A stretch of 4,853 nt of DNA, taken from IMG/VR virus record IMGVR_UViG_2706794665_000004; one strand, 5' to 3'. Shown piece after piece: positions 1 to 4,748 of the stretch. Numbering within the stretch: position 1 is the stretch's first letter; every line of letters starts with the position of its first letter. Source of the stretch: a virus. Its lineage: Duplodnaviria; Heunggongvirae; Uroviricota; Caudoviricetes. The notes beneath the pieces are model-generated. The model saw only the letters and a list, made by a program, of their open reading frames with translations. It searched no databases and was not told the origin of the DNA. Position numbers and translations under genes: made by a program.

Positions 1-152
1 GACAAAGTCATCGGGCATTATCTGAACATAAAACACTATCAATAAGTTGGAGTCATTACCAAAAAAACCGCCGAAACGGGTTAAGTGCGGGTGCGTTGAG
101 GATGCCTGACACATCAAAGGTGGCGGGAGATTACTCTCCCGCCTGGTCACTC

Positions 153-308
153 TTACTCTCTAGATTCGTAGTCTACGAAAACAGCGACCTCCGTCTGGCC
201 GATTCGGATTCGTACCTCGCAGAGGTCTTTCCTCGTTACCAGTGCCGTCACAATGACGGTTAAACAGATGACGATCAGGGCGATTAACATCGCCTTTTGC
301 TGCTTCAT
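153..308 (-). CDS. hok: Hok/Gef-family type I toxin, 51 aa (MKQQKAMLIALIVICLTVIVTALVTRKDLCEVRIRIGQTEVAVFVDYESRE)
   Basis: Internal ATG at 306-308 of the 70-aa ORF, preceded by AAGGAG about 9 nt upstream. Single transmembrane helix, conserved RKDLCE and GQTEVA motifs, TAA stop at 153-155. From memory the first ~35 residues match E. coli HokD/HokC and the C-terminus diverges; not verified by search. Confidence 0.85.
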   Translation of the reverse strand: MKQQKAMLIALIVICLTVIVTALVTRKDLCEVRIRIGQTEVAVFVDYESRE

Positions 309-365
309 AGCCTGCTTCTCCTTGCCTTTCGGCACGTAAGAGGCTAACCTACATTTGTGAGACAT
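153..365 (-). CDS. mok: Mok-like leader ORF, in-frame 19-codon N-terminal extension of hok (MSHKCRLASYVPKGKEKQA + Hok)
   Basis: ATG at 363-365 opens the same frame as hok. The 70-aa product resembles, from memory, chromosomal MokC (basic leader ...KVKEKRAM fused in frame to Hok). Hok/sok biology: mok translation is needed for hok translation. Only a weak GAGG lies upstream. Confidence 0.45.
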   Translation of the reverse strand: MSHKCRLASYVPKGKEKQAMKQQKAMLIALIVICLTVIVTALVTRKDLCEVRIRIGQTEVAVFVDYESRE

Positions 366-415
366 AGATTGGGCCTCAGATTAATGTTAAGCGTCTTGCA
401 GGACGCGTAATGTTA
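357..415 (+). ncRNA. Putative Sok-like antisense RNA complementary to the mok start region (position inferred by analogy, ends not defined)
   Basis: By analogy with hok/sok loci the antitoxin RNA lies antisense across the mok start. Candidate promoter on + strand by eye: TTGCCT 322-327, 17-bp spacer, TAACCT 345-350. Small hairpin GCGTC/GACGC at 391-406, but no clear U-tract terminator. Confidence 0.2.
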
Positions 416-646
416 ACTGGGGCTTTTCTCTGTCTGCCTTACAGTGACATACCCGAGGCAGACAGCCTCAAGCACCCGCAGCAATCTTACCGACACCGAT
501 AAGAAAACGCTATTTTTTATTGCCAGCACCATCTATCCAGGCTAGTTTATCTGCGTCAGAACGGCGCAATGCGCTCGCCTGAGATACGTTTACTTGCCAT
601 GGTAACAACAGGTAACGGCAATTGCTGTTTCTGTTTTGTTTCCTTC

Positions 647-4071: not shown

Positions 4072-4748
4072 TTACCCCCTGAAGCCTGGCGGGATCGCAC
4101 TGTCCGGCAACGAGACGGTGTTAACCTGTCGGAGCAACGTCTCAGGCCGAACACCTTTCGGCGCGAACAGGCCCTGGTATTCATTGGCGATGCTGTGTCG
4201 AATCACCTGCTCAGGTGTAAAACCCTGCTGACGGAATTTTTCCAGTTCCCGTATCGCCCCGTTAGCGCCCTGCTCCGTTCGAATCGGTTTTCGCAATGCC
4301 TGTCTGAACCGGACCCACTCATGCCAGAGTGTTTCCGGCAACCAATCGGGCAGCTCAATAGCCTCCGGCTCGAATTTTTTAGACGCTCGTTTTTGGCGAG
4401 GGGGAGATCAGTATTTAGATCTTCCTCTTCCTCTTCCTCTGGTAACGCTTTTTGATCCGTTTGTGTAACGCTGGCAGCGTTACCTTTTCGTTTCAGTTCG
4501 CGTATTTTTGTTACTCGCTCGTTTGTAACCGCCCGTTTTTTTTAGAGCTTTTTCCGTTATGACGTTCAAAGTTAGGTAGAGAAAGCCCTCCGTCATTTTC
4601 GACCAGCCATCCAACCTGAATTAACGCATCAGCAAAACCAGACATAAAAGTGATGCGATCTATTGCACTTTTTGTAACGCCGCGAGCGTTACAATCTGCA
4701 TTACCGTCTATCATTTGTTGATCCGCCCATGCCCAGAAGCGAATAACC
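4072..4748 (-). pseudogene. Disrupted ydaU-like (DUF1376-type) replication-initiator gene: 5' end truncated by IS insertion and split over three reading frames
   Basis: Three consecutive stop-free minus-strand frames tile the region: 4748-4514, about 4541-4380, and 4407-4075. The switches fall at an A8 run (4536-4543) and an A6 run (4375-4380) on the coding strand. Position immediately upstream of the DnaC-like gene matches the ydaU-ydaV arrangement in Rac. The 87-aa ORF's apparent GTG start (4772-4774) lies inside the IS terminal repeat. Confidence 0.6.

Follow-up and report, generated by a model that had tools for sequence, protein, structure and literature searches.

The window, a 4,853-nt stretch of DNA analysed as a whole, very probably carries at positions 61–489 a complete hok/mok/sok type I toxin-antitoxin (TA) cassette of the prophage hokW-sokW/hokD subgroup, within a degraded lambdoid prophage of Shigella sonnei and in its nin-type region. 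This reading is drawn from sequence comparison and predicted RNA folding. The cassette belongs to a known family and a known type of locus, which are already annotated and catalogued: the identical 51-aa protein is present in RefSeq as "Hok/Gef family protein [Shigella sonnei]" or "MULTISPECIES ... [Shigella]", on at least 1000 contigs, and three Hok genes were counted in S. sonnei Ss046 (Fozo et al. 2010; PMC2887945). Although RefSeq annotates the toxin gene, the annotated records examined contained no Sok, mok or regulatory-RNA feature.

Positions 1–2859 of the window are 100% identical to S. sonnei chromosomes, including that of Ss046 (CP000038). In these genomes, the sequence corresponding to window positions 1–60 extends into a full IS1, followed by genes for a DUF1367 protein, YbcO and a Q-like antiterminator. 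On its other side, the cassette is flanked by DUF551 and HNH genes. Because these flanks are nin-type genes and a late-gene regulator, the cassette lies inside a degraded lambdoid prophage and not outside the prophage operon, where the original prediction had placed it. The distance of about 280 bp that this prediction gave between the locus and a terminator is accurate, as a symmetric terminator (A-run, GC-stem and T-run) is found at 646–678, 281 nt from the mok ATG. Weak Rfam matches on the plus strand at 523–684 (STnc30, PsrR1, His leader and others; E-values of 0.08–0.7, far below gathering thresholds) were driven by the 646–678 hairpin and were taken as chance. Similarity searches also showed that the cassette is widespread in Escherichia coli, where 4720 of the 5426 complete genomes match 61–700, at a median of two sites each. 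The best E. coli match, in strain FDAARGOS_944, is 99.5% identical and has no IS1 at the site. Many lambdoid phages match the module at 89–93%, including the hokW/mokW/sokW loci of 933W and VT2-Sakai (Sp5).

Several features of the surrounding DNA are worth recording. A hydrophobic 27-aa open reading frame (ORF) at 683–766 on the minus strand (MTWPEAFTTVGIAMAVALVVYSICRWG) shares an ATGA with the stop codon of the upstream gene; a near-identical counterpart is placed likewise immediately before hokW in 933W (locus L001, 1939–2022, minus strand), where the upstream genes are different. This ORF had no Pfam or PHROG match, and it is unannotated in both records. Farther away, 2809–2859 consists of 51 bp from the left end of IS1; in the reference genomes of S. 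sonnei (loci L053–L057) the IS1 interior continues at 2859 for at least about 450 nt, while the window passes directly into a DUF977 gene at 2860. A minus-strand ORF at 2468–2881 reads across this fragment, and the real gene within it is probably 2468–2824, by comparison with an E. coli locus (L002, 7408–7764). The ORF has a weak match to Pfam Zn_Ribbon_TF and resembles L0139 of 933W (L001, 2019–2489, minus strand) around a CxxC...CxxC...PF motif; it may therefore be another early-region gene common to the window and 933W, differently placed in each. Finally, the replication-gene region at 4380–4560 appears to be in decay: the E. coli relative is homologous up to 4380, inside a YdaU-family pseudogene, beyond which come a CTT/CCT-rich stretch and short broken ORFs.

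The cassette and its boundary comprise the following features, listed along the window.

1–60, plus strand: IS1 right end, identical to S. sonnei genomes where an IS1 transposase gene (PF03400) comes next; it marks the module boundary and lies outside the TA system.
61–79, minus strand: predicted hok mRNA terminator, with a 4-bp stem and UUCG loop (68–79) followed by U7 (61–67).
87–101, minus strand: fbi element CCUCAACGCACCCGC, predicted to pair with tac, C95 being bulged.
122–143, minus strand: GC-rich hairpin after the stop codon (RNAalifold helix 8, also present in the single-sequence fold).
153–308, minus strand: hok ORF, 51 aa and stop codon, starting at an internal ATG at 308 (MKQQKAMLIALIVICLTVIVTALVTRKDLCEVRIRIGQTEVAVFVDYESRE) and carrying T36I relative to its relatives.
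153–365, minus strand: mok ORF, 70 aa with an ATG start, in frame with hok and ending at the same stop codon; match to PHROG 251, "MokW-like host killing" (E-value of 1e−31).
299–310, minus strand: hok start region, predicted to pair with 173–185 within the ORF and so to sequester the hok translation start (helix 6; 98% of cells paired, two pairs changed on both sides).
322–327, plus strand: sok promoter −35 box TTGCCT, overlapping the hok Shine-Dalgarno (SD) sequence on the other strand; TTGCC or TTGACC is conserved across the alignment.
336–342, minus strand: CUCUUAC box, predicted to pair with GUAAGAG(UG) at 148–156, spanning the hok stop codon (helix 4; paired in 28 of 28 homologues).
345–350, plus strand: sok promoter −10 box TAACCT, identical in 933W and 17 nt from TTGCCT.
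357–427, plus strand: predicted Sok RNA of 71 nt, with a 5′ tail, a long hairpin and UUUU at 424–427, recognized by homology to the annotated sokW of 933W.
374–377, minus strand: mok SD sequence GAGG, inside the Sok target and 9 nt upstream of the mok ATG; its columns are invariant in 28 homologues.
417–423, minus strand: ucb-like box GCCCCAG, predicted to pair with the mok SD region (373–379) in the full-length fold and with tac in the 3′-truncated fold (helix 3; four pairs changed on both sides).
430–465, minus strand: 5′ hairpin of the hok mRNA (helix 2), where the window and 933W differ by a compensatory G-C/A-U change.
466–479, minus strand: predicted 5′ end of the hok mRNA and tac element GCGGGUGCUUGAGG, pairing with 87–101 in the minimum free energy (MFE) fold; position 1 of the Rfam model RF01794 falls at 477.
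484–489, minus strand: putative −10 box TAAGAT of the hok/mok mRNA; a TANNNT hexamer (TAGAAT, TATAAT, TACAAT, TATATT and others) is equally far upstream of GCGGG in aligned full-length homologues.

The identity of the two ORFs is supported by domain searches at scores far beyond chance. Hok matches Pfam PF01848 (HOK_GEF) over all profile positions (1–42 of 42) with 76 bits, for a cut-off of 22, and an E-value of 1.7e−21. Its score of 51.7 bits against the NCBIfam Hok subfamily NF007279 is below the cut-off of 73, a shortfall that is not discriminating because HokD and HokC of K-12 and HokW fall below the cut-off as well. For the same reason NCBIfam naming was uninformative as to subtype: it has no HokD or HokW equivalog, and all four reference Hoks score below the subfamily cut-off. 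These matches bear out the initial description of a 51-aa Hok gene with an in-frame Mok-like leader, as well as its comparison with mokC/hokC, since K-12 mokC and hokC have one common stop codon and the same in-frame layout. The mok ATG (363–365) is kept in almost all of 28 aligned homologues. Also correct was the statement that about 35 N-terminal residues match HokD and that the C-terminus differs: residues 1–35 are identical to those of K-12 HokD, for 46 of 51 identical residues overall. The proposal of a distinct paralogue, on the other hand, does not hold, given that the VDYESRE C-terminus places the protein in a common prophage allele group close to the VDYESEK of HokW (22 and 48 occurrences, respectively, among the protein clusters retrieved) and that the exact protein is in RefSeq for Shigella. 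The span first given for the locus, 153–480, had the coordinates of ORF and leader right but was incomplete, as the unit runs from the hok −10 box (484–489) to the U-run (61–67); the 3′ untranslated region (UTR) at 61–152, which contains the fbi element, fell outside that span.

By its sequence, the antidote RNA gene looks intact and not missing. The original prediction had pointed to TTGCCT and TAACCT as the promoter of a Sok-like RNA; both boxes are present, and the region that contains them (322–350) is identical over 29 of 29 nt to the sokW promoter of 933W, which is functional: a mutation of the sokW −10 box abolished antitoxin activity, and the primer used for the promoter-less sokW mutant alters exactly the TAACCT hexamer (PMC8621323). 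In both annotated sokW of 933W and K-12 sokC, the RNA starts 49 nt upstream of the respective hok ATG, and the same offset therefore puts the Sok start at G357 here. The predicted RNA is complementary to the mok SD (374–377) and the mok AUG (363–365). Its fold consists of a single-stranded 5′ tail and a long near-perfect hairpin, G+C-rich at the base, and then UUUUCUCU (−31.4 kcal/mol, z = −4.8, no shuffled sequence being as good); in this model the hairpin and the U-run form an intrinsic terminator. The hairpin/terminator stretch has two differences from sokW. The earlier suggestion that no clean terminator is present, and that the antitoxin RNA may be absent or degenerate, is thus not supported, as the predicted 71-nt RNA ends in such a structure.

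A consensus promoter and terminator scan of positions 1–800, with a threshold of 9 of 12 matches, reported no promoter and called neither the Sok nor the hok terminator. The sok promoter is a modest one by comparison with the consensus (7 of 12 positions), and the case for its strength derives from its identity to a promoter that works elsewhere, that of sokW. As for the terminators, the rules of the scan (loops of 3–8 nt and at least five T in eight positions) do not fit those of Sok and hok; folding and comparison with homologous Sok RNAs that are mapped or annotated were therefore used instead. The Rfam model RF01794 (sok) aligns to 303–477 on the minus strand over its whole length (model positions 1–157 of 157) with 118.1 bits, for a gathering threshold of 59, and an E-value of 2.2e−27. 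As the matching strand is the minus strand and the alignment stops at the hok AUG, the model corresponds to the 5′ UTR of the hok mRNA and not to the Sok strand. The family named "sok antitoxin" thus runs from tac to the hok AUG on the sense strand, and a strand-aware annotation pipeline would put "sok" on the wrong strand here.

The control elements of the hok mRNA were examined by folding and by comparison of 28 non-redundant full-length homologues from Escherichia, Kluyvera, Citrobacter, Pantoea and Photorhabdus. Beside the −10 box TAAGAT no −35 element was recognizable, and the consensus scan at its threshold of 9 of 12 was silent there; in plasmid R1 the hok −10 box is TATGAT, as shown through suppressor mutations (PMC9841398). 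When the minus-strand transcript was folded, as had been proposed for tac/fbi pairing, the 5′ and 3′ ends were found paired in the MFE structure of the full-length RNA (479 to 61; −168.9 kcal/mol, z = −6.4). The predicted tac-fbi duplex of the window has 14 bp and one bulged C (479–466 with 87–101; −25.6 kcal/mol). In an RNA truncated at 116, after the post-stop hairpin, the 5′ end shifts in the thermodynamic prediction to the ucb-like box at 417–423, a tac-to-ucb switch that is described in the model for R1 hok (PMC9841398).

RNAalifold analysis of the 28 homologues recovered the tac-fbi helix, the 5′ hairpin, the Sok-target hairpin, the CUCUUAC/GUAAGAG clamp, the hok-start helix and the post-stop hairpin, the ucb-like box being paired with the mok SD at the base of the Sok-target hairpin. 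Over the predicted pairs, 98.2% of cells are paired, against 38–48% when partners are slid by 1–3 columns, and 11 pairs are changed on both sides, against 1–5 in the slid controls; these counts score a structure that was itself derived from this alignment. The covariation amounts to few independent events, because most compensatory changes split Escherichia-type from Photorhabdus-type sequences. In the MAFFT alignment, the inner half of fbi is displaced by one column between these two types, a shift due to the bulged C which makes this half unscorable by column pairs; per-sequence duplex folding was used instead, and showed that the duplex is retained in 28 of 28 homologues (−18.5 to −29.3 kcal/mol). 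Its compensatory changes include one position where U-A is replaced by C-G and two where G-C is replaced by A-U, some of them in the inner duplex half; at alignment columns 6/403, for instance, UA is found in 16 sequences, CG in 11 and UG in one. The long-range clamp formed by 336–342 and 148–156 is possibly a dcb-type interaction; being nearly invariant across the 28 sequences, it provides no evidence from covariation. Judged by sequence and alignment, then, the hok mRNA has all its control elements, and compensatory changes across the 28 homologues accompany part of them.

Given these elements, two other readings of the locus had to be weighed. The one implied by the original prediction is that of a toxin gene of the HokD/RelF type standing alone, with no working antisense antitoxin. 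The NCBI pipeline does label many near-identical genes "hokD", and the N-terminal identity to K-12 HokD points in the same direction. However, K-12 hokD aligns only to 62–322: sok and its −10 box, the mok start, ucb and tac are missing there, whereas the window has all of them, together with a sok promoter identical to the functional one of sokW and a terminator hairpin with its U-run. This reading is already contradicted at the sequence level, and we give it hardly any credence.

Alternatively, the cassette may be complete in sequence yet a silent relic, like most chromosomal hok loci of K-12, as a result of T36I, weak promoters, a weakened terminator or the adjacent IS1. Shigella genomes are known to contain many decayed genes. 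Moreover, the junction with IS1, whose transposase frame is on the plus strand and converges on hok, is directly at the 3′ end of the module: it falls at 60/61, inside the U-run of the hok terminator, and abuts the last U. About 150 bp of neighbouring DNA are absent compared with E. coli FDAARGOS_944 and there is no visible target duplication, a pattern suggestive of an adjacent deletion linked to IS1. The terminator has a stem of only 4 bp, against CCCGC-UUCG-GCGGG and U6 (five GC pairs) in relatives, no promoter reaches consensus grade, and T36I, the S. sonnei allele, is the sole amino-acid change from the nearest E. coli allele, at a position occupied by T or S in 45 of 45 close relatives (genome contigs). 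Inactivity is frequent among chromosomal hok loci, some of which have degenerated (Fozo et al.; PMC2887945), and IS elements adjoin inactivated K-12 hok loci, as does IS186, 20 bp from hokC.

Against this reading, no frameshift, stop codon or deletion was found in any element of the cassette, so that the sequence shows no sign of the truncated or otherwise inactive hok relic that had been envisaged at the outset. The insertion left 7 of 8 U and cut no module element; fbi and the U-run are intact beside IS1, unlike in hokC of the K-12 type, where IS186 replaces the fbi region. The 4-bp terminator stem is shared with the IS-free E. coli FDAARGOS_944, from which the window differs at only three places over 61–700; other than T36I, these are a synonymous change in codon 43 and a base in the loop of the 5′ hairpin. 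Position 36 varies among representatives at 50% identity, where distant homologues that look intact include ones with the hydrophobic L, V or Y. A few E. coli alleles whose C-termini are different also carry I36. At the level of sequence there is thus no sign that Hok is inactivated. A residue equivalent to T36 is not mentioned in the main text of the R1 study (PMC9841398). Finally, at least 1000 S. sonnei contigs carry the exact allele. We therefore consider a silent relic unlikely. Less probable again, and to be held as a speculation with little in its favour, is that the S. sonnei allele is non-neutral, T36I attenuating or retuning Hok while IS1 and the weak terminator would alter 3′-end formation, hence the fbi-dependent timing, in a lineage-specific domestication of a prophage killer cassette.

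If the sequence-complete cassette works as its relatives do, its transcription, processing, toxicity and biological role can be inferred by homology with R1 hok/sok and Sp5 hokW-sokW. A weak constitutive promoter (−10 TAAGAT, 484–489) would produce a minus-strand mRNA of about 420 nt. The full-length mRNA would be locked in an untranslatable form, its 5′ tac (466–479) being paired to the 3′ fbi (87–101) and the ucb-like box (417–423) masking the mok SD. Slow trimming from the 3′ end would strip fbi, the 122–143 hairpin being the likely stop point for the exonuclease according to the R1 model (PMC9841398); tac could then pair with ucb, which would expose the mok start. In the absence of Sok, translation of mok would drive the coupled translation of the 51-aa membrane toxin Hok. 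When present, the 71-nt plus-strand Sok RNA (357–427, made from TTGCCT-17-TAACCT) would bind the mok SD and AUG, block translation and mark the duplex for RNase III. The role of the cassette could be to assist lysis on induction, as for Sp5, or could amount to mere persistence of the cassette.

These data have little importance beyond the correct annotation of the locus, namely that S. sonnei has kept a prophage hok/mok/sok cassette that is complete in sequence and full-length, whereas its K-12 counterpart hokD is truncated. Specialists of type I TA systems may note two details, the ending of 933W homology at both module edges and the position of IS1 precisely at the end of the terminator U-run, compared with the removal of fbi by IS186 in K-12 hokC.

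The closest characterized system is hokW-mokW-sokW of the Stx2 phage 933W and the Sakai prophage Sp5 (AF125520; Takada et al. 2021, PMC8621323), with 92.4% nucleotide identity over window 79–485. HokW of 933W is identical to Hok at 48 of 51 residues (94%) and likewise has an in-frame mok; the differences include T36I and the C-terminus, ...SRE in the window and ...SEK in HokW. The two loci have the same sok promoter and the same Sok start relative to the hok ATG, and tac and fbi are identical. About five positions differ in the 5′ tail of Sok; since Sok is encoded in cis, its target carries the matching changes automatically. The hok −10 box reads TAAGAT in the window and TAGAAT in 933W, and the DNA upstream is unrelated; the sequences also diverge 3′ of fbi, where the window has its hairpin and U7. 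Homology is thus limited to the module: it spans the interval between a point immediately 3′ of fbi and the hok −10 region (window 79–485, L001 1501–1905). Moreover, the 933W module adjoins the large L0134 gene and L0139–L0141, whereas that of the window lies between nin-type genes and a Q-like gene. The end of homology at both edges, together with the different locations, suggests a cassette that moves as a unit (a mobile cassette or moron). In experiments on Sp5, HokW arrests growth, and sokW expressed from its own promoter prevents this arrest, a protection that partly requires RNase III and Hfq; upon induction by mitomycin C, the sokW RNA is lost, HokW is found in the inner membrane, and about twice as much phage is released as by the deletion mutant (PMC8621323). 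A preprint on the Pas sRNA that cites hokW-sokW contains only this citation and has no bearing on the present locus.

K-12 hokD (relF), in the cryptic prophage Qin, is of the same subgroup and also prophage-borne, with 46 of 51 identical amino acids (90%) and 91.6% nucleotide identity over window 62–322. Its DNA aligns to this interval only: it is 5′-truncated, has neither sok gene nor mok start, ucb or tac, and is preceded by relBE, whereas the window keeps 323–489 with all the elements. The C-terminus is VDYESRE in the window and TAYEPEE in K-12 HokD. By this alignment, the locus of the window is the complete form of what K-12 has as a truncated hokD relic. K-12 hokC (gef)/mokC/sokC is more distant (about 74% nucleotide identity) but has the same in-frame layout, the same 49-nt Sok offset and the same RNA helices. 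SokC is 59 nt long, and the hairpin of the window Sok is about 18 nt longer. In K-12 hokC, IS186 is inserted 20 bp past the stop codon, in place of the fbi region (alignment row L017), while in the window IS1 comes past the terminator. Finally, hok/mok/sok (parB) of plasmid R1 follows the same logic, with a tac/fbi lock, ucb, mok-coupled translation, a cis-antisense Sok and a TANNNT −10 box (PMC9841398), although R1 Hok is only 44% identical to HokW, the closest characterized relative of the window Hok (PMC8621323). The R1 locus is a plasmid system for post-segregational killing, whereas the copy in the window is borne by a prophage.
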